From positions 1,028-65,027 of IMG/VR virus record IMGVR_UViG_3300033183_000145: 64,000 nt of DNA; one strand, 5' to 3'. Origin of the DNA: a virus. Lineage: Duplodnaviria > Caudoviricetes. The notes under the pieces are model-generated. The model saw only the letters and a list, made by a program, of their open reading frames with translations. It was not told the origin of the DNA and did no database searches. The translations under genes and the position numbers were made by a program. Position 1 is the first letter of the stretch. Each line of letters opens with the position of its first letter. This document shows, piece by piece, positions 28,723 to 64,000 of this stretch.

Positions 28723-28737
28723 GTTAATTCAATTTAG

Positions 28738-28811
28738 TACGCCCGCCAGGATTCGAACCTGGGACCGTTTGCTTAGAAGGCAAATGCTCTATCCAGCTGA
28801 GCTACGGGCGC
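28738..28811 (-). tRNA. tRNA-Arg (anticodon UCU)
   Basis: Full cloverleaf: GCGCCCG acceptor, TAGCTCAGCTGGATAGAGC D-arm, TTTGC-CTTCTAA-GCAAA, GGTTCGAATCC; CCA not encoded. Confidence 0.95.
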
Positions 28812-29212: not shown

Positions 29213-29230
29213 TGCTTTAGATTTAATTTG

Positions 29231-29304
29231 TTGGGGCGGTGGGACTTGAACCCACGACTTCCTGTGTATAAGACAGACGCTCTAACCAACTGAACTACGC
29301 CCCA
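29231..29304 (-). tRNA. tRNA-Ile (anticodon UAU)
   Basis: Cloverleaf: TGGGGCG acceptor, TAGTTCAGTTGGTTAGAGC, TCTGT-CTTATAC-ACAGG, GGTTCAAGTCC. Confidence 0.9.
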
Positions 29305-35012: not shown

Positions 35013-35492
35013 TTAGTAGAATCTGTCCTTCCTGAGTCTCATAAGGCCCCCGTCAGCATAGAGGTCAGCTGCCCAGGCTGCAGCCTTCGCAGAATTCTTA
35101 GCTCCCCAACCGAGAGGTTCTCCCTTGTAGTCTTTTGAGTTGTCAAGAATGCTCTCAAAGAGCGGGCCTGTATCAAGATTGTAGTTTTCGGTAAGACCAC
35201 CAAGTGTTTCTTTAATCTCAGGCAGTCTTTCCTGGAGCTGATCCTTAAACTCAAGAAGCTTAAGCTTACCTTCTTCATCCCTTGGCATCTTAAATGTCTG
35301 AATCATACCTAAAAGGCCTTTCATCTCCTCATCGGTCATATTCTGCATCTTTTCGTAGTCCAGACCCTCAAGGTTTTCCACTGGGAAGTCTCCGAGATCA
35401 ACAAGTGCTGATGCTCTCTTTATAAAGTCTGCTTTTGGGTCACCAGGATTGCTGGATTTACCCCCTGATTCGAATCTTCTAAGTGTTCTCAT
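35013..35492 (-). CDS. Hypothetical protein
   Basis: 159 aa; FESGG and YADGG motifs at the termini. Confidence 0.6.
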   Translation of the reverse strand: MRTLRRFESGGKSSNPGDPKADFIKRASALVDLGDFPVENLEGLDYEKMQNMTDEEMKGLLGMIQTFKMPRDEEGKLKLLEFKDQLQERLPEIKETLGGLTENYNLDTGPLFESILDNSKDYKGEPLGWGAKNSAKAAAWAADLYADGGLMRLRKDRFY

Positions 35493-35661
35493 GTTTAGAT
35501 ATAACTATTCTTGCGCCATAAAGAAAAAGGATTCATCTTTGTACACACAAAAACCAACTTTGAATGTTTAATTACTTCTGAATCGCTTCGATACCGTAAA
35601 GGTATAAAGGAATTTTTTAAAAGTCAAGACTAAAGTGATGCTTTAACAAGAATAACGTAAG

Positions 35662-35982
35662 TTATTCAAAACCAAGGAGTTCGAGCATAGAATTTTGAGC
35701 TGCGTTTTCTCCAACTTGCCTCGTAGACTCGTTTAAAAGATCGTTTATCACCCTTTGAGCCTTAGTTTTCCCCTTTTTGAGGATGTTTTTAGCAGCTGAA
35801 GTACCAGCTTTAGCAAGGCCTCTACCCAAAAGGAGCGCTTCAAGCATTAATTCAGGCTTCATCTTCACTGGACCGTCCTCAAAACCGTACAGATCCATAG
35901 AAACGCTTCGGTTAGAAGGTGCATTTTCAGGCCTAGCTACAGCCTCCTTGACAGGATCTCCTGTTTTTCTAATAGTTCTCAT
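35662..35982 (-). CDS. Hypothetical protein, first gene of the leftward arm
   Basis: 106 aa; TACCTTTG at 35988-35995, 5 nt before ATG. Confidence 0.6.
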   Translation of the reverse strand: MRTIRKTGDPVKEAVARPENAPSNRSVSMDLYGFEDGPVKMKPELMLEALLLGRGLAKAGTSAAKNILKKGKTKAQRVINDLLNESTRQVGENAAQNSMLELLGFE

Positions 35983-36055
35983 AAGAGCAAAGGTAAAAAA
36001 TGCTCAGTAATACGTATCTGGGGGATTATATATACTTTCAGACGAGCGCGCGCGT

Positions 36056-36385
36056 GAACCGAAACGGATTCCCCAACCCCACCCCCCTAATATCTTCGAT
36101 ATTAGCGCAAATACTTTTAGCTTTTTACCTACTGACTTTCAGTCAGTTAGGTAGCCTCAGCTCTACCACTGATGCAAAGACCTGCGAAGCTTGTGCCGTC
36201 TTCGTTGCGGTGGGACAATCCCTCCCCAATCCATCCTTGAACCCTGACTCTTCCCCTTTCAGGGGAAACATTCGGTTCCGATTTGGTGGCTCTTCACGTT
36301 GGCTAACCTACGGATACAACAAGTTGTATCTCAGTGTGTTAGCAGGTTTCAACTCCACTACTACTACCAAGGGTAGTATGTAGTG
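36056..36385. other. Non-coding divergence region packed with hairpins (control region / possible origin or genome end)
   Basis: Inverted repeats at 36087-36105, 36126-36153, 36251-36267, 36313-36330 and 36356-36385; strand-switch point. Confidence 0.6.
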
Positions 36386-36401
36386 AAAAGCTGAGAGTGT
36401 A

Positions 36402-36470
36402 GAGAGATGTATTAAATGAAACGAAACTCTATGAGTTTCATTTAATACATTCTCTCATGTCAAACTTCAA
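36402..36470 (+). repeat. Early-region hairpin + TCAAACTTCAA element, copy 1
   Basis: gagagatgtattaaatgaaac...gtttcatttaatacattctctc; motif at 36460-36470 lies in the first codons of the ORF. Confidence 0.75.
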
Positions 36471-37044
36471 TTTCTCCGACTGCCGTAAGGCAACCAACCA
36501 AGCCATCTTCCGTCCAACTGCGGCCCGCAAAGCAGAAGCTGTAAAGCTTCTGACTGAAGCCTTGGACTTCATCAACAACCTCGAAGAGGTTGCCGACAAG
36601 CCTTCGAAGAAGGCTAAGACGAAGAAGCGTCGTCGTAAGACGACGAAGAAAGCGACTCCACAGCAACGAGTTGCTGACCGTCAAGAGAAAGCCTTCCACG
36701 GGAAGGCTGACAGCCCAGTCAAGCCTTGTTCCAAGGCTAAGACAGCTTCGGTAGAAGCTGCAAGAGAGTCAGCTAAAGCTGTTAGCGAAGCTACTGGTGC
36801 TGCTCAGAGAGCAGCAAAGAGAGCTGAACTCAAGGCTGAAGCCTTGAAGAAAGAGGCTAAAGCCTCTGAAGCGAAGCCGAAAGCTTCGAAGAAAGCGGTT
36901 GCTCAACCAAAGGTTGACGACTCTCGACTCTCTTCCTTGGAAGAGAAGATTGAGATGCTGACCAAGCTGATGGCCTTGCAGATGCAGGGTGAGCCTACAC
37001 AGGTCGAAACTGTTAGTTTCGATGAACTCCCTTTCGAACTCTAA
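36457..37044 (+). CDS. Lys/Ala-rich histone H1-like early protein
   Basis: 195 aa; K/A-rich low-complexity core; acidic-aromatic tail SFDELPFEL. Confidence 0.65.
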   Translation: MSNFNFSDCRKATNQAIFRPTAARKAEAVKLLTEALDFINNLEEVADKPSKKAKTKKRRRKTTKKATPQQRVADRQEKAFHGKADSPVKPCSKAKTASVEAARESAKAVSEATGAAQRAAKRAELKAEALKKEAKASEAKPKASKKAVAQPKVDDSRLSSLEEKIEMLTKLMALQMQGEPTQVETVSFDELPFEL

Positions 37045-37057
37045 TCCTTCATTGAAA

Positions 37058-37216
37058 ATGAACATTTGGCAACAACACATCAACGCCGACTACCATAGAA
37101 TGGTAGACGAAATCAAAGATATGGCTCGTTTCCAAGGAAACGACAAGGCGCTTGAGATGCTCGATGCAGTCATCGACTGCCTCAATGCTCAAAGAGCACA
37201 ATTCGAACAACTCTAA
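37058..37216 (+). CDS. Small early protein
   Basis: MNIWQQHINADY..., 52 aa. Confidence 0.55.
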   Translation: MNIWQQHINADYHRMVDEIKDMARFQGNDKALEMLDAVIDCLNAQRAQFEQL

Positions 37217-37226
37217 TTCATCGAAG

Positions 37227-37316
37227 ATGGACATCAACATCATCCTTTACGCCGTGTGCCTTCCGCTGAAAATCGTGACGCTCGCCTTGCTTTGGGTCGA
37301 TGCCAACTACGAATAA
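37227..37316 (+). CDS. Small hydrophobic (membrane) peptide, 29 aa
   Basis: MDINIILYAVCLPLKIVTLALLWVDANYE. Confidence 0.45.
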   Translation: MDINIILYAVCLPLKIVTLALLWVDANYE

Positions 37317-37322
37317 ACCCTT

Positions 37323-37408
37323 AGAGAGTCTTAGTATATATACTCTCTCTGAACGTAGTGAAGAGAGTATATATACAAGACACTCTTGAAACCTTTTTCA
37401 AACTTCAA
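37323..37408 (+). repeat. Early-region hairpin + TCAAACTTCAA element, copy 2
   Basis: agagagtcttagtatatatactctct-ctGAacGTAgtGA-agagagtatatatacaagacactct; motif at 37398-37408. Confidence 0.9.
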
Positions 37409-37418
37409 TTCAATCGCT

Positions 37419-37565
37419 ATGCAAAACTTTGCAGACATCCGCCGTCAGCTGATTGCTGACATCCTCGACTCTCACCTCTCCTTCGACGCAGTCCGTGCGA
37501 CTACGGACTGGGAGCAACTCACCTGCTTGGAGCAGATGACGTTGGAGGACTTGATTGATATGTAA
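37419..37565 (+). CDS. Small early protein (48 aa)
   Basis: MQNFADIRRQLIADILDS...; ATG 10 nt after the motif. Confidence 0.55.
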   Translation: MQNFADIRRQLIADILDSHLSFDAVRATTDWEQLTCLEQMTLEDLIDM

Positions 37566-37578
37566 TATCAATTTCACA

Positions 37579-37628
37579 GGCACACTGATGAGTCCTGAAT
37601 GGACGAAACGCCGTGAGGCGTCTGTGTC
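37579..37628 (+). ncRNA. Hammerhead ribozyme, type I
   Basis: Stem I GGCACA/UGUGUC, core CUGAUGA, stem II GUCC-UGAAU-GGAC, GAAA, stem III CGCC-GUGA-GGCG, GUC cleavage triplet (cut after 37622). Confidence 0.93.
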
Positions 37629-37649
37629 AAACTTCAAATTTCATCTACG

Positions 37650-38009
37650 ATGACAATAAAATCCTTATACTTCCTCGTTCAAGAGGGCGAGGGCTTCAGC
37701 GTCTGTGCTGACTTGCTCACCTACGGAGGTGGCGGCTATGCCGTCGGAGGTTCAGTCCCTGCCGTCGGCGTGTACAAGTACAAGAACGACGAGCTTTCGT
37801 TCAATCGTTTCAAAGAAACGATGGTGAATCTCCAGCGCGTATCAACTGATGTGACGCAGGTGATTGGTGCTTGGGTCGATGCCGACGGCATCGCTTACCT
37901 CGAAATCTCTGACGTAGTGCTTTCCAAGCAAGTGGCTCTCGAACTTGCACGAGCACGTGGAGAGAAAGCCGTCTACGACTTCGCTAACTCTGAATCCATC
38001 TACGTATGA
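37650..38009 (+). CDS. Early hypothetical protein
   Basis: 119 aa; IGAWVD...YLEISDV.....ALELA..RGEKAVYD conserved-looking motif. Confidence 0.65.
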   Translation: MTIKSLYFLVQEGEGFSVCADLLTYGGGGYAVGGSVPAVGVYKYKNDELSFNRFKETMVNLQRVSTDVTQVIGAWVDADGIAYLEISDVVLSKQVALELARARGEKAVYDFANSESIYV

Positions 38010-38233
38010 ACATCTGGGAACGCTACCCCAAGCGGGGCACGACGAGCGATTGGCGCCCCAAGGCGGTGCCAACCGACGAGTACCGAATGGTCTACTACTA
38101 CGGCTTCGACCGAGATGATTGGGATGCGCTCACGTTCAAGGCGTGGTCACTCGACCACGCGAAAGAGCGGGCACTCGAACTCGTCCCTAATGGACACCGC
38201 ATCAAGTCAGTCAAACCTGTTGATAATCAGTAA
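38006..38233 (+). CDS. Early hypothetical protein
   Basis: 75 aa, ATGA-coupled. Confidence 0.6.
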   Translation: MNIWERYPKRGTTSDWRPKAVPTDEYRMVYYYGFDRDDWDALTFKAWSLDHAKERALELVPNGHRIKSVKPVDNQ

Positions 38234-38248
38234 CTTAAACCCTTTCAG

Positions 38249-38329
38249 ATGAACAAACGATTGAACATCGCGTTCCTCGCATTCCTTGCGTGGATGGCCA
38301 CGCTTTTTGTGGTGGCTCTCCTCCACTAA
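38249..38329 (+). CDS. Small hydrophobic (membrane) peptide, 26 aa
   Basis: MNKRLNIAFLAFLAWMATLFVVALLH. Confidence 0.45.
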   Translation: MNKRLNIAFLAFLAWMATLFVVALLH

Positions 38330-38332
38330 ATA

Positions 38333-38406
38333 GAGAGGTGAGTATATTACTCTCTGAACGTAGTGAAGAGAGGTAATATACGAACCCTCTCAATGTCAAA
38401 CTTCAA
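38333..38406 (+). repeat. Early-region hairpin + TCAAACTTCAA element, copy 3
   Basis: gagaggtGAgtatattactct-ctGAacGTAgtGA-agagaggtaatatacGAaccctctc; motif at 38396-38406. Confidence 0.9.
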
Positions 38407-38418
38407 ATTTCCAATCCT

Positions 38419-38649
38419 ATGGACAACTTCTTCAAACGCCCCGTCGGTGCGGCGGTGCTCTACCTCAACGACTTCCACTTCGGCAAGCGACTCAATGACC
38501 TGAATCGGTGTGCTCGGCTTGTACCTGACGACGTGAAGGGCATGGCTTCCATCCTCTCGAACGTGCCACAAGCTGGCACCGCCACGGCAAAGCTTGCCAT
38601 CGACCAACTCGTTACATGGGCAGACGATGCCGAAAAAGCAGAGCAATGA
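38419..38649 (+). CDS. Early hypothetical protein
   Basis: 76 aa following element 3. Confidence 0.6.
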   Translation: MDNFFKRPVGAAVLYLNDFHFGKRLNDLNRCARLVPDDVKGMASILSNVPQAGTATAKLAIDQLVTWADDAEKAEQ

Positions 38650-38960
38650 AATTCACACACTCCTTCAAGACCACACTCCCCTTCGTGTCAATGCGGACAT
38701 CCTACGACGTAGACCTTGACGCCGCGAAGAACGTAGAGATGGACACCTCCATCGGGATTGACCCCAACCATCAGTATGGTGGGTGGTACGAAACCTACGA
38801 CCTCGAATCAGGAGGCGACCGCTTCTATGCAGGTGGTGTGCTCGAAGTGTACTGGGATGACAACGGAGAGGTACGCCTCACGGGGTACGATGGATGCTTC
38901 GAACTCCCTGAATATATCATCGAAGCCCTTGAAAAGAAGGGCGTAATCATTGACCTATGA
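38646..38960 (+). CDS. Early hypothetical protein
   Basis: Start MKFTHSF (ATGA overlap); LTGYDGCFELP motif. Confidence 0.6.
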   Translation: MKFTHSFKTTLPFVSMRTSYDVDLDAAKNVEMDTSIGIDPNHQYGGWYETYDLESGGDRFYAGGVLEVYWDDNGEVRLTGYDGCFELPEYIIEALEKKGVIIDL

Positions 38961-39154
38961 CACAAGACAAATGCGAACGTGCAGTCAAAGCACTGCAAGA
39001 ACAAGGCTTCTCTGCCTCCTATGTGCAGGGAGCACCTGACAACCACGGCGTATGGTTGGACAACGTATGGAATGACGCCCTTCAGGGAGCCTTTAGCTTC
39101 CGCATCCACGACGAAGAAATCGAATGGTGGCAAACCCAAAACAAACCAGTATGA
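38957..39154 (+). CDS. Early hypothetical protein
   Basis: 65 aa, ATGA-coupled. Confidence 0.6.
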   Translation: MTQDKCERAVKALQEQGFSASYVQGAPDNHGVWLDNVWNDALQGAFSFRIHDEEIEWWQTQNKPV

Positions 39155-39297
39155 CACAGGCAGAACGACTCGACAACCGCACGAAGAACTGCGGTAGCTT
39201 TGAACTTGCGCTCATCCGAGCGTGGTTCAAGGCCGACAACATCAACAAGAAGATTCTCGAAGCGGCCTTCAAGGACACCAACTTCGACCTAACATAG
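39151..39297 (+). CDS. Early hypothetical protein (48 aa)
   Basis: GSFELALIRAWFKADNINKKILEAAF; its stop abuts element 4. Confidence 0.55.
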   Translation: MTQAERLDNRTKNCGSFELALIRAWFKADNINKKILEAAFKDTNFDLT

Positions 39298-39378
39298 AGA
39301 GTGTTAGTATATATCTCTCTCTGAACGTAGTGAAGAGAGATATATACAACACCTCTCAATAACAAATTCAAACTTCAA
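39297..39378 (+). repeat. Early-region hairpin + TCAAACTTCAA element, copy 4
   Basis: gagagtgttagtatatatctctct-ctGAacGTAgtGA-agagagatatatacaacacctctc; motif at 39368-39378. Confidence 0.9.
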
Positions 39379-39388
39379 TTTAATTACG

Positions 39389-39649
39389 ATGGACAACATC
39401 AAGCAAATGACAAATGCGGAGTTCCTCACTCACCTGACGGAGGGCTACTCCAAGTACGGGGCACTCGTACAAATGGTGGTCATTGACTGCCTCGCCAAAG
39501 GACTCGACCAATACATCGAGCACAAGGAGGAAATCCTTGCAGACTACAAGGCTAACTGCGAAGCGGGCAAGTTCTCCTTCGTGAATATGGAGGCATGGGT
39601 AGCATGCTGTGAAGAAACCAAACAACGATTCAACGACAAGTACTCATGA
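39389..39649 (+). CDS. Early hypothetical protein
   Basis: 86 aa following element 4. Confidence 0.6.
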   Translation: MDNIKQMTNAEFLTHLTEGYSKYGALVQMVVIDCLAKGLDQYIEHKEEILADYKANCEAGKFSFVNMEAWVACCEETKQRFNDKYS

Positions 39650-39804
39650 AAATAACACTCGGACACAATCAAGTAGCCGTACTCGACTACTCCACACGAG
39701 AGGTGGACATCATCACCATCGCTAACCTCGACGACGTTGAGGATTTGGAATCAACACTATACGAACTTGGGTACAACCCATCTGAAATCTCATACATGGC
39801 ATGA
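39646..39804 (+). CDS. Early hypothetical protein (52 aa)
   Basis: Manual ORF MKITLGHNQVAVLDYST..., ATGA-coupled at both ends. Confidence 0.55.
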   Translation: MKITLGHNQVAVLDYSTREVDIITIANLDDVEDLESTLYELGYNPSEISYMA

Positions 39805-39954
39805 ACAACATCATCGAAGTAATTGTCGAGCTGTCCCGCATGCAGGGACAGGCAATCGACCGAGCACAGGCAGAGGCTCTCAACACTGCCATCGAAGCTG
39901 GCTACGACAAGTGGCAAGCAAGCAAGACATTTAATCTCAACAAAAGCAACGACA

Positions 39955-40389
39955 ATGGCTGATACACAAGTGAAAGACCAACCATGGGGTAGCTACTGGG
40001 ACAACGAAGGCAAGTACCAAGAGCAATACACAAAGGCATGGGAGAAACTTATCCCCTTCGAGGGTGAGGCAGAGGACGGGTGGCCCGAAGCCCTCCGTGC
40101 TATCTCCCGCATCGGCTACGACTACTACAACAACGGGTTCTGCAACCTGTGGAGGGAGTGGGATGATGGCGACAAAACTATGGATTCGTACTACAAGGGC
40201 ATGGTAGACTACCTGCGAGACCACGTACCGTCTGACCTGTACCGCGAGTTCAGGGGTTGGCTACCCACCATCAGATACGATAGCATCTCATGGGGTACGA
40301 ATGGTGACGACATCATCGACCGCATCATCAATCACATTATGGAAGGCATCATCGAAGATAGCCTTCTCGAAGAGGAATTGGTTGATTGA
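39955..40389 (+). CDS. Early hypothetical protein
   Basis: Start MADTQVK; YWDNEGKYQ...LIP..G...LRA..RI.YDYYNNG motif. Confidence 0.65.
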   Translation: MADTQVKDQPWGSYWDNEGKYQEQYTKAWEKLIPFEGEAEDGWPEALRAISRIGYDYYNNGFCNLWREWDDGDKTMDSYYKGMVDYLRDHVPSDLYREFRGWLPTIRYDSISWGTNGDDIIDRIINHIMEGIIEDSLLEEELVD

Positions 40390-40401: not shown

Positions 40402-40448
40402 GAGGAGGCATGAGTGACTGAAACGTCAGTCCGCCTCCTCACTTTTTT
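40402..40448 (+). terminator. Terminator-like hairpin
   Basis: GAGGAGGC...GCCTCCTC followed by acTTTTTT. Confidence 0.55.
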
Positions 40449-40450
40449 CA

Positions 40451-40534
40451 AGGGAGCGCAGTCGGTGCGTACGTCCACGAATACCATGACCACTCAGGTC
40501 GGACGTCAGTTGTGTTCGATTCCCAACCTCCCTT
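40451..40534 (+). ncRNA. tRNA-like RNA with aberrant anticodon arm
   Basis: AGGGAG/CTCCCT acceptor, CGCA/TGCG D-like stem, ACGTCC/GGACGT stem with a 24-nt insert, GTTGTG-TTCGATT-CCCAAC T-arm. Confidence 0.6.
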
Positions 40535-40540
40535 CTATTT

Positions 40541-40623
40541 AGTATCTCTTACTATACACTCTCTTCATTTATGAAGAGTGTATAGTTAGAGAGACTTATA
40601 CGACTTCAAATTTCAAACTTCAA
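40541..40623 (+). repeat. Early-region hairpin + TCAAACTTCAA element, copy 5
   Basis: agtatctcttactatacactctcttcat-tt-atgaagagtgtatagttagagagact; motif at 40613-40623. Confidence 0.8.
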
Positions 40624-55707: not shown

Positions 55708-56144
55708 TTTTTGGACTTTTCGAGGGTTCTTCCAGCAAAGTATGCGCCAAAAGATGTTAGCATAAGAATCTCCAGCAAAGATACATAACTTTCCTTCACG
55801 TTAAAGGGCAGGTAATCAAGCGAGTCCAGCACCATGGTCACCATGAACATGGCCATGAGAGCGATCAAAGTCACTGGTCTGATGTACTTTGCGAGCTTGA
55901 CGTCGCTCCCCATATCAGCCTTCCATCTTTCAGTTACATTGTTCTGATAGGCTATCTCTGCGTCAAGGACTGCCTTGGCTTCTGCAGGGTCTACACTATC
56001 ATCATTATCGAGAAGGTTCTTCACTATCCCGAGAGCTCCCTGATCTGGCAAAAGATCACCCACTGTATCCAATACACTAGGCGCTTTATCTTTTAGCCAC
56101 TTGCCAAGGTTGGTGTCTTTGATCTTATTTTCTTGCTTGCTCAT
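55704..56144 (-). CDS. Putative holin (GTA 3TM-holin-like)
   Basis: VTERWKADM.SD..L.K.IRP, two TM segments, FGAYFAGRTLEK. Confidence 0.7.
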   Translation of the reverse strand: MSKQENKIKDTNLGKWLKDKAPSVLDTVGDLLPDQGALGIVKNLLDNDDSVDPAEAKAVLDAEIAYQNNVTERWKADMGSDVKLAKYIRPVTLIALMAMFMVTMVLDSLDYLPFNVKESYVSLLEILMLTSFGAYFAGRTLEKSKK

Positions 56145-59100
56145 ATCTCTTGTTGAACTCCATGATTATCTTTCTTTCCTTCTCTCTGAGCTCCTGTATT
56201 CTCGCTATGCGTTGAGCATACGGGAGCTTGTTTGCTTCTCTTTTAGCAGCTCTTAGCTGACGGAGCATCTTGTCTACCTTATTCAGGTAGTTATCCATTC
56301 CTCTAGTAATGCCTCTGTGTCTTTCTGGATCGTATTCTCCAGATGCCTTTATTTCCTTTACGTAAGACTTGAGCTCTTGCTTGTTCTCGTTAAACAACTC
56401 AAAGTCATAGTACTTAGATGGCTCTCCGTAAAGTATACGCGCAAGAGGTATCTCATTTGCCTCAATCTTTATGTCTTCTCCAGAAGAGAACTTAGAGACT
56501 ATCTTCTTTGGAACTGCAACAGATCTGTTTACAAACTGACCAGCTGATCCGATATAGTACTCGAACATGTACCAAAGCTTATCTGGATTAAAATCAAGTC
56601 CTCCAGATTTGTACTCACTTCCACCAGTGGCTTCATTCATCCACTTGAAGAAGTCCTTCACGGCCTCAGGGGATCTGAAAGAAAGCTCTGACTCTGGGCG
56701 CTGAACTCCGAACGGGAGATTCTCTCCTGTTACTGGAGCTCCAAAGTAAGTTTCATTCACCATGACCTCAACCCAAGGCTTGAGTACCGTTGGAACTGCT
56801 CCCTTACCGACGCTCGTCATAAGGTCTTTAGACTGACCAAACGATACTGGAGAGAACGAGGCCATAAATGAGTTAAACAAGAACATCATCGCCTCATCAG
56901 CCTCCTTGCCTCCGTGAGCAGACTCTACCATAGCTGTACCCATGTTTGCAAACACGTTAAATCCATACGGCATAGGAATCTTAAAGTAGTCCTTTCCGTT
57001 GGGGCGCATAATGATAAGGTTTCTTTCCTTCACGTAATCTGGAATCTTGTCCCAGTATGGAGTTCCGTCTTCATCGTCGTCAGACATAGCGTAGCCAAGC
57101 TGCGCGAGCATAGCGCTAAACGTCGTCAATCCAGCAGCCATCCATTGTGCTGCGTTGACTCTTTCAACTCCCTTTCTTCTTGTGCCGTCTACCCTTGTTT
57201 CGGGTTTAAGCGTAAGCAACGACCTTCCAAGTCTTGCTGTACCCTGTATAGATGCGTTGAAGAACAAGTAAACAGCATTTAGGGCTGGACCCCATTCGCC
57301 CTGCTTATTGAAGTTAACAGTGATGTTCTTTGCAAGCTGAGCTGCCTTTTCTCTGCTGACTCCATTCTCCCTTGCAGCTATGTATGCAGCAAGCCTGATG
57401 CTATTCTCAAAGGCGTCGTTAACGCCCTCGATTGTTTCTGCAAAGTTCTTAGCCTTGCCGAGTATCTCTTGAGTTCTTGTCGTATCACTAGCAGCATTTT
57501 CAAGGTCGCTAGCTATTTGGTCTAGAGATCTTGCGTATGCCCAACCTGTCTTACCTCCGTCTTCTTTAAATTCTTGGAAATACTTCTCAATAGCTGGGTC
57601 TCCGCCTCTCTGAACAGAGTTCTTGACGAGCGTTTTAAGCGTTTGAGGAACAAGCTTCATCATCCTCTTGATGGTGCCCTTGCTGTTCAGCATTCCACCC
57701 TCTATATCGGCCTCTGCTGCTGCGTTAAATATAGCAGACTGAATATCTCTAGAGAAGTTGGATATCATAAACTCTGGGTTCAGAGTCGTGAATGACCTTC
57801 TCAGCCATTGTGCTGGAACTCTGAGCGCTCTTATGAATGCGTTGGTCTGTGGGAGGTTCATTCCCTTCAGGCTTTCAGCATAGCTTGGGTCCTTAAAGAA
57901 TATGAACTTCTGCTCTCCATTGATTCTTACTGCGACAACTCTCGCGTCGTTGGGGTTCTGAACCTGACTCGCATCAAGTACTCTCCAAACCTTAGGATTA
58001 GGAGTATCCTTAATCAGGTTGTATAGAGTCGTGAGGGCTTCGTTGGTTCTGGCCTTTATGTGGATTCCTGCATTTTGAGCAACAATCTGAGCGAGAATGT
58101 TTTCAGCTTGACTCTTTCTACCTTGTGCTCTCTTGGTCGTAGATCCAAATACGTTCATGCCAGCCCCTCCAGTGGGATATGGAGATCCAAGATCTTCGTC
58201 TACAGCTACTCCAGCCAAAGGAACATAGTTGCTAAACATAGACTCAAAGGCATCAACAGTATCCTTGGTCTCAAGACCATACTTAACCATTGTGTCCCTT
58301 GTGTCTTGCTGTATCTCTCTGACCTTAGCAACGATTGGGTCCAGCTGAGCCTTGTTTGCGGAGTTGATGATTGCATCAGCCTCAGCGTTGGACATGCCAC
58401 TACCATCCTTTATCGCTCCATTCGTTCTTTGCTCAATGATGGCATTGCGTTCCTTGGCGTGCAGGGCGTACAGGTACTGAGACAATGCAGTAACATCTAT
58501 GCCAGAGTCCTTCATCATCTTGGTGATCTCCTCGACCTTCTTGTCGAGTTTAGCGAGATCTTCTGCGGCCTTGCCGTACATGAGCTCTTCAGCCATTTTG
58601 AAGTCCTTGTCTTTCGACAGCGGACCAAACTGCTTCTCTATAGACTGTTGCAGATTAAATATGTCTACATACTTGTCCTGAAGCCTTCTTATCCAAAGGT
58701 TTTTCCACCTCTGGAATCCAGTGTGGTTAGGGGCGTCCCAGGCTTTGTGCTTTCTCTTGCCAGCCGATCGCCTAATCGTGTCTTCTCCATCTGAGTGTGT
58801 AACCGTCTCCTCTCCTACGACTTGACCAGTAACACCCTTGGCCGCATAGAATGATTCCTGAGCCTCAAGGTAATCTTCGTATCTGTCGAATTTGTTTGCT
58901 TCGTCTGAAGCTTCAAATTCTTCCTTGGACATGAACTTAGCGAAGAATCTTTTTTCACCTTTGTCGTACCCCTTCGCCTCTGGGTATGCGTCTGCTATAC
59001 CCATCTGCTCTCTCAGGAAGCCCATCTGCTCCACTCTGGAGTCGTACTCTTCCTGAGTTTCACCGTCAAGCTTTGTTATAGCAAGCCCGTAAGAGAATGC

Positions 59101-62100
59101 GCCGTTACCCTTGAGTCCAACTACATCAAGACCAGTTACAAGTCGCTTCTTGTTATCAAGAGACATTCTCTTAAGCTGATTCTTAGATATGTCTCCTTCA
59201 ATCTTGTATGGGACCTTTATCGCAGCCACTATCGTTCCACCTTCTACCTTCCCAAATTGCTTTTCTATGTAGTTATCTTTAAGGAATTGGTCTGCATTTT
59301 GGTTGAGGTTCTTTGCTATTATTCTTCTGGCAAAGTTGTTTCTATTCTCAAAGTTCTGGTCAAAGTTCTTTGGGTTCGTGTCCATGAGTATATCGACCAG
59401 CGCTTGCGCCTCTTGCATCGTCTCCACCTCGAAAGCCTCGGCCCTTTGGTAAGCGTTGTATATTCTTCTGGCGTCAGCTGGTTCCAGCGCATCCATAAGG
59501 TCCTTTATGTTTCTTCTCTTGCCCTTGCCCTTGGCGTCAATCATTTCGTTCAGAGCGTCTCTGACCTGCTCGAAGTTTTGATCTGTGACTTGTATTCTTC
59601 TGCCCTTTTCAAATCCGAGAGCCCTTCTCACCACGTCTTGGAATATAGCTGGGTTTCCAGCCATAGAAGCCAAATCAAGGACAGAGAAAGTAAACAATAC
59701 ATATCCCTTTGGGTTCTTGCTCTCTGCATCAAGTATTGCCCCTCTTCTGAACTTTCCAGAAACTATGTTAGCCATAGCCTTGTTTCTGTGGCTTGAGGCA
59801 ATTATCTCCCTAATTCCGTCATTATCAATTCTTTGCGTAAGCTGCATCACGATGCCAGTGCCGATCTGTTCCCCAGATCTGTCGTAACCAAAGTTGATTC
59901 CGCGAGCGCCAGCAAATCCCTTGAGGCTATCAATAATTTTCGCGCCTCTGTTCTGAGCCTTTTTCAAGAGCCCGTCTTCTGCCTGAACAGTACGAGCCTT
60001 CTTTCTCTTACCTGCGCTGTATCTAATGCTTCCGTCGTTAGTAGCGTCCCCATCCTTGGCCATGTGGTGCGGCGTAAGCCCAGACATACCATAGATTTCA
60101 GAGGGCTTCATCTGCTCTATCTCACCTGGGGTGAGGCCAGACTCTTTAAGTGCCTCGAAGTTTTTCTTGGCGACCTCAAGAAACTCTCTTTGGTGCTCAA
60201 CAGGCTTAAGGCCGAAATCAATCATGGCTCTACCAACAGCCATTGATCTCTCGTCTTCGCTCATATTTTGCATAGCGTCGACGTCCATAACTCCTGGCAT
60301 GAAGAACTCCGCTCTTGCTCCAGGTACACCAGCCCGAACCATCTCTGCTCTTACGAACCCAGAAAAATCAATGATTTCGCTGCGAATCTTTCTTTTCTCC
60401 TCTGCAGCTAACGCTCTTTTCTTTTGAGCCCTATCCGCTGCAGCAAGTCTTCCATGAAGCGCACCCTCCATGCGTATTACGTTCCCGTCTCTATCCGTCT
60501 TTGGCTTTGGTGGCTTGATCGTGTACCTCTTGCCATCCTTGATAAAGTACATCTGGGTAATCCTTGCTGGTCTACGACCGTTGGCAGTCATATGGTTAAA
60601 CCAGTTTCTGAAATGGAAGTAGTCGTTAACCTTAATCTTCTTTTGAACTGTCCTTTCAAATGTTGGCTTGGCCTCGCCTATCTCGACGTATGCGTCCTCC
60701 GTGTAAAACACCTCGGTATCCTTGAGATAATTGAACTCGGTTTTTCTTTTCCCGTACGCAAAACGAACCTCACCTAGGTCACCCATCTCGTCCTCAAACC
60801 TCTGCTGCTCTGTCTCTTCATCTCCGAGCATTTCTGTTGCCATTTGCTCAAGACGTGCTTCGTACTCAGCTTGAGACTCAGTCTCTCTCTTTTGCATGGA
60901 CGGCCCCTCTGTTGTGACGCCCTGCTCTCCTCTAGTTGCTCTAGCGAAGTTCTGTGCGAACTTGATGAGCTCTTCTCTGTTCTTAATCTGCGGGTCTCTT
61001 TGATCGCCTGGCTGACGACCAAGGAATCGGTCAAGAGCGTCGTTGATAGCGTTCTTAAGTCTGACAAAAAATCTTTCGTCGTTAGCCTCGAAGAGGGATT
61101 GATTCTCTGCATATGAAAGCAGAACCTCAACAATAGACTCCTCCTCTACAGCCGCCTGACCTTGCTCCTGATATACAGGGTTGTTTTTTATTTCTTCAAG
61201 TATGTTTCTGACGGCTTCATTCTTTTCAGCCATCTCGACAAGAACGCCGTAGATCTGCTTTCTTGCAAAAGCATCATTCCCTATGACGTGTCTCAGAGCA
61301 GCGTGTGCAAACTCTTCCTGTACCTCTCTTGCGTTGACGTCTGGTGGGAAGTGAATAACCTTTCCGCCGTGGTCAACGTGACCAAAACCGCCCTTCAGTC
61401 CTCCACTAGCCTCGTATGAGGCTCTTGTCTTATGGGCTCTAACCTTATAGCCAGCTTTGCCCAAGGCGTCACCGTATGCAGAGTTGAGGCGGTTAGCCTG
61501 AATAGCCGCAGCCACAGACATGCGTCCAGACTCACCGACTTGAGTTTCATCTGTAATGTCAATCAGATCGCCCTTGCCAAGTTCGAGGTCAGCAAAGTCA
61601 CTATCATCAGTTGTCGGTTCGGCCCTCTGTTCAGCCTTAGGCGCGTCGGCCTTTGCCTCAGACTTCTCCCCAGAAACCTTATCTCTAAAGTCTTGTTCTT
61701 CAACAATCTTCCCTGCAACCTTGGCAGACCTCTCATCAATAGGCCTTCCCTCTTGGGTCTCGTCAAATAGCGACAGCTGCTCGGCCTCTTGTGCTTGGCC
61801 TTCTGGTGCTGGCTCTGACGACTGCTCTGAGAGCTTTATGTTGTTTCTCTCAAGCATCTTAATAGACTCAGACTTCATCTCAGTCTCGTTTCCTTCGGCG
61901 TCAGTAGTAGCTACTGGGGCATCGTTCTCCGCCACGTCAGGACCCTCTGAAGCACCCTCAATAGCTACCTTGGCTCTGTAGAGGTTTTCGTACCTCTTCT
62001 TAAGCTGCTCTTTCTCTTCCTTCGTTGTGTTGGGGTCCATGAGCTTGGCCTCCGTGTAAGCCATGTCTCTGTGGATCTTCAGAAGTCTTCTTCTTTGTCC

Positions 62101-64000
62101 TTCGCTCATGTTGTCGAAGGCCTTCATTGAGCTATCGTCGATAGCCATAAGCTCTGCAGAGATTTGAACCTGCATAGCTTCAAGTCTCTTTCTGTTGTCT
62201 GGGTCTCTTTCTATTGAGAGATCATTTTCGATCTCTTCCATCTGCTTTGCGAGCTGACGTCTTCTCTTTATGAAGCTGTTGTGGGCTTGGAATGATGCGT
62301 AACCAGACATCGCGCTTCCTGGGGCTGCACCAATGAGTCCAGCTATACCAGCATCAAGCATGTTGTACCAGTTCAGCTCACCTGGCTCCCTACCCATAAG
62401 CATGTCATCCAAGATTGGCAGGGCCTGTTGAATCAACTCCACACCAAATTCTTCAGCAAACTCACCGAAAGCATTTTTTGATCCATAGGCCATAGACTTT
62501 GCAAGGGACCTTCTCTTCGTCATCTGAGCAAGTCTTTCCGCAGACTCTTTCTTGAGTTTATCTATGGCCTGCCTGTACACTCTAGTCTTTCCGCCAGCAA
62601 TAGCCCTATCAAAACCAGAAAAAATTCTTCCTAGATAAACCTCGGCTGCGCCGACCAGTGTAGACATTGTAGCCTTTTCTGCCCAGGATTTTGATGGATC
62701 CGTGACTTGCTCGCTATTCCAGAAGTTTCCGTATCCACTAACACCAAGAGTTCCAATCATTCTAGCGCTTTCAGCTCTTGTCGTAGCTTTTACAAGCTGA
62801 TCTGCTCTTCGAGCCGCAGAAGCAGCACCCTTGGTGAGCAGTCCTTCTCCAGCTGGAATTCCTTTCTGTATAGCTTTAGCCCTCCGAAGCCTGTCGGCTG
62901 GACCACCAATAATCTTACCCCACCCCCGCATTTGCCCAATGAAGCCAGACGTATAAAAAGACATGCTTTCAAAGAAGTCCGTTGCAGAGATATCATCGTT
63001 TAGATATTTCTCCCAAGAACCCATAAACCCGTTTTCGAGATCCTCTAGTGGCATTCTAGCTGCCTCTGCATATGCTACAGCCTTAGCCCTTGCGTCAAGC
63101 ATTTTAGCTGTTTCAGCGTAACCCGACAACTTCAGTGAAGCATCATCCATTCCGATTAGGTCTAGCCCAGAGCTAACAGCACCTGCGAATCCGCTCACTA
63201 TGCCTACTCCAGTTCCAGCATATTGTTCCGCAAAAAAGTTTGCTGCGCTTCTCCATGCCCACCCAAGAGCTGGGACATCTGCCAATCTGTATTCCTCTCC
63301 TCCTATAATTACGTCCCCAGAGTACAGGGACTTGTACATATCCGCAGAAGCACTCTCTCTAACCGCCTTGTCTACTTCTTGCTGATAGCGATAAAGAGGC
63401 GAGTTCTTCATCATAGCAAGGTTTCTGTCCATGGACTCGTCAAGCAAGTACATAAAATCTACATCAGACTCAGGGTTAAACGAAGAAGGGAGCCCAAAGG
63501 CTTCGTTCAGCCTGTTTCTTTCTTCTATAAGCTCTCTTTTGTCCTTTTGGATCTGCTTCGAGACTATGTTGTTGACGTACTCAACGTCCCGCTGGTCAAT
63601 TTCATCACCGAGGTCTGGGATGTCGTAACCCTTGCTATTGAGCAGGTCTATAGTAGCTCTTGCTGATTCGTAATCACCTCTAGCTACAGCGGCCCTAAGC
63701 CTCTCATTTGCTTTAGTGGCTTCAAAAACATCAAAAGACCTTGCGTCGTTTTGATTTGACTGGAAGAGATTGTCTACGAGTTCGTAGTTGCCAGCGTCAA
63801 GCGCAGCAATCATTTGGTCTGGCATCGCCGTTGGCGACACCGCGTCCTCTGGATCGTAATACTCAATAGCTGGTTTTGCCTTGTCTTCGTATGCACCAGC
63901 GCCACCAAAAATACGATCTGCGTTTTCTGGGATGGCTACACTTACGGGTTGTCCATACTCATCCTCTGTAAACATGGATTGTCCATCCCCACGCTCGAAA
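56125..64000 (-). CDS. Giant internal virion / large polyvalent protein with C-terminal LPD38-like domain, partial at the 5' end
   Basis: >2616 aa; the frame stays open from 63975 to the window edge. NPEF...NF.RD, EN..RLA.Y, AKNITVNFN..G, YLFFNASIQG, IPDYVKERN, KIPMPYGF motifs. Confidence 0.8.
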   Translation of the reverse strand, partial: FERGDGQSMFTEDEYGQPVSVAIPENADRIFGGAGAYEDKAKPAIEYYDPEDAVSPTAMPDQMIAALDAGNYELVDNLFQSNQNDARSFDVFEATKANERLRAAVARGDYESARATIDLLNSKGYDIPDLGDEIDQRDVEYVNNIVSKQIQKDKRELIEERNRLNEAFGLPSSFNPESDVDFMYLLDESMDRNLAMMKNSPLYRYQQEVDKAVRESASADMYKSLYSGDVIIGGEEYRLADVPALGWAWRSAANFFAEQYAGTGVGIVSGFAGAVSSGLDLIGMDDASLKLSGYAETAKMLDARAKAVAYAEAARMPLEDLENGFMGSWEKYLNDDISATDFFESMSFYTSGFIGQMRGWGKIIGGPADRLRRAKAIQKGIPAGEGLLTKGAASAARRADQLVKATTRAESARMIGTLGVSGYGNFWNSEQVTDPSKSWAEKATMSTLVGAAEVYLGRIFSGFDRAIAGGKTRVYRQAIDKLKKESAERLAQMTKRRSLAKSMAYGSKNAFGEFAEEFGVELIQQALPILDDMLMGREPGELNWYNMLDAGIAGLIGAAPGSAMSGYASFQAHNSFIKRRRQLAKQMEEIENDLSIERDPDNRKRLEAMQVQISAELMAIDDSSMKAFDNMSEGQRRRLLKIHRDMAYTEAKLMDPNTTKEEKEQLKKRYENLYRAKVAIEGASEGPDVAENDAPVATTDAEGNETEMKSESIKMLERNNIKLSEQSSEPAPEGQAQEAEQLSLFDETQEGRPIDERSAKVAGKIVEEQDFRDKVSGEKSEAKADAPKAEQRAEPTTDDSDFADLELGKGDLIDITDETQVGESGRMSVAAAIQANRLNSAYGDALGKAGYKVRAHKTRASYEASGGLKGGFGHVDHGGKVIHFPPDVNAREVQEEFAHAALRHVIGNDAFARKQIYGVLVEMAEKNEAVRNILEEIKNNPVYQEQGQAAVEEESIVEVLLSYAENQSLFEANDERFFVRLKNAINDALDRFLGRQPGDQRDPQIKNREELIKFAQNFARATRGEQGVTTEGPSMQKRETESQAEYEARLEQMATEMLGDEETEQQRFEDEMGDLGEVRFAYGKRKTEFNYLKDTEVFYTEDAYVEIGEAKPTFERTVQKKIKVNDYFHFRNWFNHMTANGRRPARITQMYFIKDGKRYTIKPPKPKTDRDGNVIRMEGALHGRLAAADRAQKKRALAAEEKRKIRSEIIDFSGFVRAEMVRAGVPGARAEFFMPGVMDVDAMQNMSEDERSMAVGRAMIDFGLKPVEHQREFLEVAKKNFEALKESGLTPGEIEQMKPSEIYGMSGLTPHHMAKDGDATNDGSIRYSAGKRKKARTVQAEDGLLKKAQNRGAKIIDSLKGFAGARGINFGYDRSGEQIGTGIVMQLTQRIDNDGIREIIASSHRNKAMANIVSGKFRRGAILDAESKNPKGYVLFTFSVLDLASMAGNPAIFQDVVRRALGFEKGRRIQVTDQNFEQVRDALNEMIDAKGKGKRRNIKDLMDALEPADARRIYNAYQRAEAFEVETMQEAQALVDILMDTNPKNFDQNFENRNNFARRIIAKNLNQNADQFLKDNYIEKQFGKVEGGTIVAAIKVPYKIEGDISKNQLKRMSLDNKKRLVTGLDVVGLKGNGAFSYGLAITKLDGETQEEYDSRVEQMGFLREQMGIADAYPEAKGYDKGEKRFFAKFMSKEEFEASDEANKFDRYEDYLEAQESFYAAKGVTGQVVGEETVTHSDGEDTIRRSAGKRKHKAWDAPNHTGFQRWKNLWIRRLQDKYVDIFNLQQSIEKQFGPLSKDKDFKMAEELMYGKAAEDLAKLDKKVEEITKMMKDSGIDVTALSQYLYALHAKERNAIIEQRTNGAIKDGSGMSNAEADAIINSANKAQLDPIVAKVREIQQDTRDTMVKYGLETKDTVDAFESMFSNYVPLAGVAVDEDLGSPYPTGGAGMNVFGSTTKRAQGRKSQAENILAQIVAQNAGIHIKARTNEALTTLYNLIKDTPNPKVWRVLDASQVQNPNDARVVAVRINGEQKFIFFKDPSYAESLKGMNLPQTNAFIRALRVPAQWLRRSFTTLNPEFMISNFSRDIQSAIFNAAAEADIEGGMLNSKGTIKRMMKLVPQTLKTLVKNSVQRGGDPAIEKYFQEFKEDGGKTGWAYARSLDQIASDLENAASDTTRTQEILGKAKNFAETIEGVNDAFENSIRLAAYIAARENGVSREKAAQLAKNITVNFNKQGEWGPALNAVYLFFNASIQGTARLGRSLLTLKPETRVDGTRRKGVERVNAAQWMAAGLTTFSAMLAQLGYAMSDDDEDGTPYWDKIPDYVKERNLIIMRPNGKDYFKIPMPYGFNVFANMGTAMVESAHGGKEADEAMMFLFNSFMASFSPVSFGQSKDLMTSVGKGAVPTVLKPWVEVMVNETYFGAPVTGENLPFGVQRPESELSFRSPEAVKDFFKWMNEATGGSEYKSGGLDFNPDKLWYMFEYYIGSAGQFVNRSVAVPKKIVSKFSSGEDIKIEANEIPLARILYGEPSKYYDFELFNENKQELKSYVKEIKASGEYDPERHRGITRGMDNYLNKVDKMLRQLRAAKREANKLPYAQRIARIQELREKERKIIMEFNKRYEQARK

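Follow-up and report, generated by a model that had tools for sequence, protein, structure and literature searches.

A putative self-cleaving type I hammerhead ribozyme at the front edge of a repeated leader in the early region of a tailed phage

Hammerhead ribozymes between phage genes, including some just before start codons, are a kind of element that has been known since 2011 (PMC3088659). In that study, Perreault et al. (2011) report all three hammerhead types from bacteria, place hammerheads in intergenic regions of the phages PaP3 and Bcep176, and describe hammerhead clusters that flank genes in polycistronic RNAs. The same paper (PMC3088659) describes a hammerhead variant in the haloviruses HF1/HF2, HHphage, which lies 13 nt before a start codon and for which a mapped transcript 5' end falls within 3 nt of the cleavage site. 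A 2019 review (PMC6765202) presents the roles of bacterial and phage hammerheads as largely undefined, with the processing of polycistronic transcripts as a proposed function, and a 2026 paper (PMC13725137) gives type I hammerheads as the usual form in bacteria and bacteriophages.

Here, we analyze a hammerhead that lies between two small genes of an uncultured marine phage, and we compare it with these elements as well as with engineered and protein-dependent systems. RiboJ-type insulators of synthetic 5'-UTRs consist of an engineered self-cleaving hammerhead followed by a hairpin. Both RiboJ and the phage element would fix the 5' end of the downstream message whatever lies upstream; the element described here occurs naturally and has an unstructured leader behind it. 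In the T7 early region, RNase III sites punctuate the operon. These sites and the T4-type PeSLs (PMC2839356, PMC4122927) are likewise repeated intergenic punctuation in early operons and points of gene shuffling, but they act via host RNase III or RNA polymerase, whereas at this locus a ribozyme would fill one such slot.

The window, by which we mean the whole stretch of DNA that was analyzed, comprises 64,000 nt (positions 1,028 to 65,027) of the IMG/VR virus record IMGVR_UViG_3300033183_000145, which is 65,027 bp long and rated 100% complete. The structural and packaging genes, which include terminase, portal, and virion protein genes, lie on the minus strand up to ~35.5 kb. From ~36.4 kb, a block of small ORFs runs on the plus strand, followed by genes for an exonuclease, a primase-helicase, and a ribonucleotide reductase; the ribozyme lies 1.2 kb inside this block. 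The first-pass annotation called the flanking genes early, and because this label comes from the genome layout, we keep it as an interpretation and not as an observation.

The terminase is closest to those of Flavobacterium, Cellulophaga, and Maribacter phages (41-50% identity). Shine-Dalgarno use is rare, with an SD-like word at just 6 of 58 starts genome-wide, and TATATTTG stands upstream of late genes at seven minus-strand sites (10984, 17957, 18644, 21553, 26422, 30521, and 34993), with no copy in the early plus-strand block. Altogether, this suggests that the host is likely a member of the Bacteroidota and that the early genes use a different transcription mode. The phage group is a marine one, and its members probably infect Flavobacteriia. 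A megablast search of 36400-39400 against cultured phages gave no match.

The elements of the locus are as follows, with the parts of the ribozyme read from the sequence unless another basis is given.

37419..37565, plus strand: upstream 48-aa gene (ORF), preceded by the shared leader motif
37554..37572, plus strand: stop-codon hairpin of 8 bp with TAA 37563-65 at its tip (from sequence, fold, and orthologues)
37579-37628, plus strand: complete type I hammerhead
37579..37584, plus strand: 5' strand of stem I, GGCACA, which pairs with UGUGUC 37623-28 (6 bp, one G-U)
37585..37591, plus strand: catalytic core CUGAUGA (C3-A9)
37592..37604, plus strand: stem II, GUCC 37592-95 with GGAC 37601-04, loop UGAAU
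37605..37608, plus strand: core GAAA (G12 A13 A14 A15.1)
37609..37620, plus strand: stem III hairpin CGCC-GUGA-GGCG, below the A37608-U37621 pair (from sequence and fold)
37620..37622, plus strand: cleavage triplet GUC (from the hammerhead consensus)
37623..37649, plus strand: leader of the predicted 3' product, UGUGUC (3' strand of stem I) followed by a G-poor part with CAAACUUCAA
37650..38009, plus strand: downstream 119-aa gene (ORF), function unassigned

The first-pass annotation described a complete core and three intact stems on the sense strand, and every coordinate proved correct when re-read in the sequence. The same is true of its distances: there are 13 nt between the upstream TAA (37563-65) and stem I, and a leader of 27 nt (37623-49) runs up to the ATG at 37650. 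The stop-codon hairpin ends 6 nt ahead of the ribozyme. CUGAUGA at 37585-91 supplies C3 U4 G5 A6 N7 G8 A9, and GUC conforms to NUH, in which H is not G. The G10.1-C11.1 pair that closes stem II (G37592-C37604) is GC in 58/58 and 11/11 sequences of the two alignments described below, and the GAAA core and the A15.1-U16.1 pair (A37608-U37621) are invariant in both. Because stem I is open and stems II and III are closed by loops, the topology is type I. Scission is predicted after C37622.

This architecture has the core, junction, and open stem I of the phage and prophage type I hammerheads in PMC3088659 (RF00163, clan CL00010), and it likewise sits between same-strand phage genes; its relatives often carry several copies per operon. 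Stem III is longer here than in the Rfam type I model. As in HHphage of HF1/HF2, a few nucleotides separate the hammerhead from the start codon of an early gene, but as described in PMC3088659, HHphage has an altered core, an archaeal high-salt host, and a mapped 5' end, whereas the core here is canonical and the element is known from sequence. Members of this precise subclass may already be among the sequences aligned in Dataset S1 of PMC3088659.

A type I descriptor run on both strands of the window gave a single match, the 37579-37628 site. Across 300 dinucleotide-preserving shuffles of the window there were two loose matches (a chance expectation of ~0.007 per window), and none had stems this long. 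Minimum-energy folding of 37566-37652 (87 nt) produces the hammerhead junction, at an ordinary energy (z = -0.95). A 150-nt context yields the same hammerhead fold (z = -2.49), and in this context no alternative structure is predicted to compete with the ribozyme.

Searches with Rfam hammerhead models had been proposed as a check. RF00163 (Hammerhead_1) returned a full-length match (model positions 1-45, E = 0.0017 in 301 nt) that is the sole match in the genome, but its score, 23.4 bits, lies under the 34-bit gathering cut-off, so that a default Rfam scan reports nothing. The shortfall is explained by an 8-nt insert in the very short stem III of the model. The RAGATH-1 hammerhead model (RF03152) scored 20.6 bits against a cut-off of 56.3; of the RAGATH-1 traits, the upstream hairpin is present and the reduced stem II is absent, since the helix has a normal 4 bp.

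We also built a covariance model for a working class defined as phage type I hammerheads with a 6-bp stem I, using 24 hammerheads of other phages. None of the 24 came from this phage or from phages that share its stem I. The site aligns to all positions (1-50 of 50) at 73.4 bits (E ~4e-23 by a rough calibration), part of which arises by construction because the pattern used to fetch the members derives from the core and stem II of this site. The next best match of this model in the window scores 11.1 bits.

Comparison with relatives provides the evidence that carries our reading. The exact 25-nt core plus stem II occurs in 17 IMG/VR contigs (15 distinct), and in each of the 17 stem I measures 6 bp and stem III is closed and varies in sequence, although neither stem was selected for by the search. 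When the loop was freed, the search reached at least 127 loci; among the 129 matches listed, 83 fit the type I descriptor, and in 65 of these 83 stem I is exactly 6 bp. Stem III varies among relatives in both length and sequence, with its pairing kept. A separate set of 75 loci from related and unrelated phages was fetched through a different element, the 19-mer hairpin described below.

The hammerhead is tied to the gene in front of it. In this set, homologues of the 48-aa gene (tblastn, 55-90% identity) were found in 16 distinct relatives. Every one of the 16 carries a hammerhead downstream of the gene, no more than ~130 nt from its stop codon: 12 lie within 80 nt and the other 4 after ~100 further nt. 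The upstream gene and the ribozyme are conserved in these relatives, and the gene after the ribozyme differs. Comparison of the 48-aa ORF with the contigs of relatives places 11 of 16 listed differences at third codon positions. The downstream 119-aa protein has a weak match to PHROG 17808, a PHROG without known function, and a search for related loci with this protein found none. In one relative, G001, a homologue of the 119-aa gene also follows a hammerhead, with one small gene in between. The two hammerheads of G001 agree in stem I and leader and differ in stems II and III.

In an alignment of 11 orthologous sites, 99.3% of cells are paired and 10 of 25 pairs show compensatory changes, compared with 24-44% of cells pairing when the partners are slid by 1-3 columns. 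On four of five measures, none of 500 shuffles of the alignment reached the observed value; the exception was the count of further pair types, for which 294 of the 500 did so. Compensatory pairs are found in stem I (3 of 6), stem II (3 of 4), and stem III (one), and each of these stems is 100% paired. The CUGAUGA core is invariant except at N7, which is U or C. The stop-codon hairpin is kept as well, with compensatory changes in 3 of its 8 pairs and 97.7% of cells paired. A larger set of 58 sequences is partly circular as a test of covariation because its members were picked by a pairing descriptor, and it counts here for the variety of pair types only; the covariation argument is carried by the 11-site alignment and the 17 unselected contigs. 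The conservation and the compensatory changes in orthologues show that the motif is under selection for its fold.

Clusters of such elements are common. Two or three type I hammerheads with an identical stem I sequence are found within 0.2-1 kb in many phage contigs (L051 at ~195-280, L024, L005, L007, L008, L010, L012, L014, L177, L220, and L146). The second hammerhead core in L051 begins 7 nt past stem I of the first.

The first-pass annotation suggested that UUCA, which is located at 37573-76, could pair with UGAA in loop II as a tertiary contact, and flank permutation lends this no support. Loop II forms at least four Watson-Crick pairs with the 14 nt upstream in 15 of 118 phage type I hammerheads, where permuted flanks give a mean of 12.9 of 118 and 306 of 1000 permutations reach 15. 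Thus, in contrast to the pseudoknot described in PMC3088659, loop II/5'-flank pairing in this set is no better than with permuted flanks. With G-U pairs allowed, loop II pairs with the 3' flank in 46 of 118 against 35.3 expected (8 of 1000 permutations reach 46), an enrichment to which we give no weight because many of the sequences are related. Of 86 distinct phage type I hammerheads, 73 could be used for a comparison of the flanks, stem I not being extendable in them. An A directly precedes stem I in 58 of these 73, and A's occupy positions +1 and +2 in 49 and 47 of 73, respectively. We infer that these conserved A's flanking a stem I of fixed length (6 bp) may be a better candidate for a contact than UUCA:UGAA.

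The predicted cut abuts the front edge of the CAAACUUCAA leader, and this leader recurs through the early region. The motif CAAACTTCAA starts at 36462, 37400, 37629, 38398, 39370, 40615, and 43413 on the plus strand. Apart from the copy at the ribozyme, it stands before the ATGs at 37419, 38419, 39389, 40633, and 43423, all without a ribozyme, and the copy at 36462, also without a ribozyme, overlaps the ATG at 36457. The ATG mostly lies 20-22 nt from the start of the motif. In the phage group, the motif was found in 116 distinct contexts: 44 follow the 19-mer hairpin, 21 follow a hammerhead, and 51 follow other elements, which include terminator-like hairpins and tRNA-like 3' ends. The motif may serve in translation, as a leader, or in transcription, as a promoter element. 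A G-poor leader is compatible with Shine-Dalgarno-independent initiation.

Altogether, this is a genuine type I hammerhead, maintained by selection, and we consider it probable that it cuts an early polycistronic RNA ahead of a leader lacking a Shine-Dalgarno sequence. The ribozyme would be transcribed within a rightward early polycistronic RNA, presumably together with the upstream gene, and would fold after the ribosome has cleared the stop codon of that gene. It would then cut itself after C37622, so that the message of the 48-aa gene would end in a folded ribozyme with a 2',3'-cyclic phosphate and the downstream message would start with a 5'-hydroxyl at U37623, followed by the 27-nt, G-poor, Shine-Dalgarno-less leader. 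At other early junctions, the same leader stands behind long conserved hairpins.

The role in mRNA processing that was suggested from the gene context is, on this comparative evidence, most likely: it fits best a junction that is conserved with covariation and a leader that is also used without a ribozyme. Since the cut lies at the front edge of a leader that also follows non-ribozyme elements, the position points to the definition of message ends and not to genome processing. In the predicted fold, the uncut ribozyme leaves the start codon uncovered. Cleavage is therefore not obviously needed for translation. Instead of unmasking the start, it would act by defining the end of the RNA, by altering its stability, or by insulating the message from structures folded upstream, and it may affect message stability or translation. 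In public sequencing runs, the shares of sequence words in common with the stretch were at most 0.20, and three RNA runs gave 0.05-0.06. The records were contigs of relatives, a form of data that carries no RNA ends, and none of them had 31 letters to either side of the cut. The locus is a clean comparative case for the role of phage hammerheads and by itself raises no new question.

The main rival to mRNA processing ahead of a leader would make the ribozyme the 3' end of the upstream message and CAAACTTCAA a DNA promoter or part of one, with the downstream gene on a transcript of its own and the hammerhead and the hairpins doing no more than trimming read-through transcripts. The result would be a composite terminator-promoter cassette like the T4-type PeSLs, which are described as composite terminator/promoter motifs (PMC4122927). 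It would account for a motif that is highly repeated and has a fixed spacing to the ATG, in a region where the TAnnTTTG motifs of the late genes are absent and where host-type promoters are unremarkable (6 found in 35400-40000 against 4.5 expected). However, the 3' strand of stem I belongs to the conserved leader, and in 42 of the 86 phage type I hammerheads the distance from the cut to the first ATG is 19-29 nt. In phage groups other than this one, hammerheads of this class have just 20-30 nt behind them, in which a Shine-Dalgarno sequence and the ATG are located. Such a short stretch offers little space for a promoter and favors a 5'-UTR role. We thus regard the promoter arrangement as unlikely.

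A conditional switch is a less probable arrangement still. In this case, the stop-codon hairpin and terminating ribosomes would tune folding of the ribozyme, so that cleavage and downstream expression would depend on upstream translation. The compensatory changes that maintain the stop-codon hairpin are consistent with such coupling, as is the upstream stop codon 0-13 nt before stem I in 10 of the 17 same-core contigs. The evidence on this side consists of proximity, however, and no competing fold is predicted.

It is also quite improbable that the ribozyme and leader serve mainly to shuffle early genes, as a recombination or mobile cassette in which cleavage is incidental. The constancy of the upstream gene, ribozyme, and leader in 16 relatives in which the downstream gene differs would fit such a cassette, and so would the multiple copies per phage with a common stem I. 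Homology for recombination, however, would not need a catalytic fold, and the fold here is kept by compensatory changes. Finally, a chance or decayed, inactive motif, to which a score under the Rfam cut-off might point, is very improbable given the shuffles, the covariation among orthologues, and the 73.4-bit covariance score.

The other early junctions carry elements of their own. Long imperfect hairpins lie between early genes on the plus strand at 37322-37390, 38330-38392, and 39294-39360 and share an invariant 19-nt tip, which in the first of them is at 37347-37365; variants with other tips lie at ~36402-36456 and ~40541-40596. The tip folds with a three-base loop, a C-G closing pair, an A-U pair, and tandem G-A/A-G mismatches within a CUCU/AGAG helix. 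The 19-mer occurs in 75 IMG/VR viral stretches, several of them from unrelated phages, in which the outer stems differ yet remain complementary, with a start codon 12-40 nt further on. It also occurs in bacterial and archaeal genomes of many phyla (86 stretches, 96 matches), within a GTCA...TC frame in 60 of the 96 matches and often as inverted pairs or arrays. The tip matches no Rfam family, and a literature text search with a 15-mer of the hairpin, its reverse complement, and its RNA form found no paper with the string; the tip may be more novel than the ribozyme. We considered the hairpin modules as host-type promoters and rejected this, because the spacing to a -10-like hexamer fits the copies in the window and not diverged copies.

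In a tRNA-like cloverleaf at 40450-40536 (+), the T-loop reads TTCGATT and a long arm replaces the anticodon arm. The cloverleaf is flanked on one side by a terminator-like hairpin (40404-40449) and on the other by a hairpin module, and neither ARAGORN nor Rfam calls it or its relatives a tRNA. Relatives of the phage have similar tRNA-like 3' ends immediately ahead of the leader. Near the ribozyme itself, a weak 5-bp mini-hairpin at 37641-37653 (+) includes the downstream start codon, and in relative L219 one of its pairs has changed on both sides.

A broader proposal, which we put forward tentatively as a possibility, is that the early operon is matured by interchangeable punctuation modules (hammerhead, cloverleaf, and hairpin) placed before one Shine-Dalgarno-less leader, with the hairpin as an undescribed two-domain signal. 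If so, the ribozyme would carry out on its own a processing step for which the other modules depend on a widely conserved host factor, and the hairpin would be a processing or recognition signal found across bacteria and archaea.

Two observations concern the rest of the window. A 2616-aa ORF at 56125-63975 (-), whose in-frame reading continues upstream of its ATG to the end of the window, carries an LPD38 polyvalent-protein domain close to its C-terminus, and its large PHROG matches are to families without known function. It was considered as a giant virion RNA polymerase and set aside, as it has neither a DFDxD motif nor a PDB sequence match and its only domain is LPD38. Beside the terminase gene, there are two tRNA genes on the minus strand, Arg (tct) and Ile (tat), at 28737-28811 and 29230-29304.
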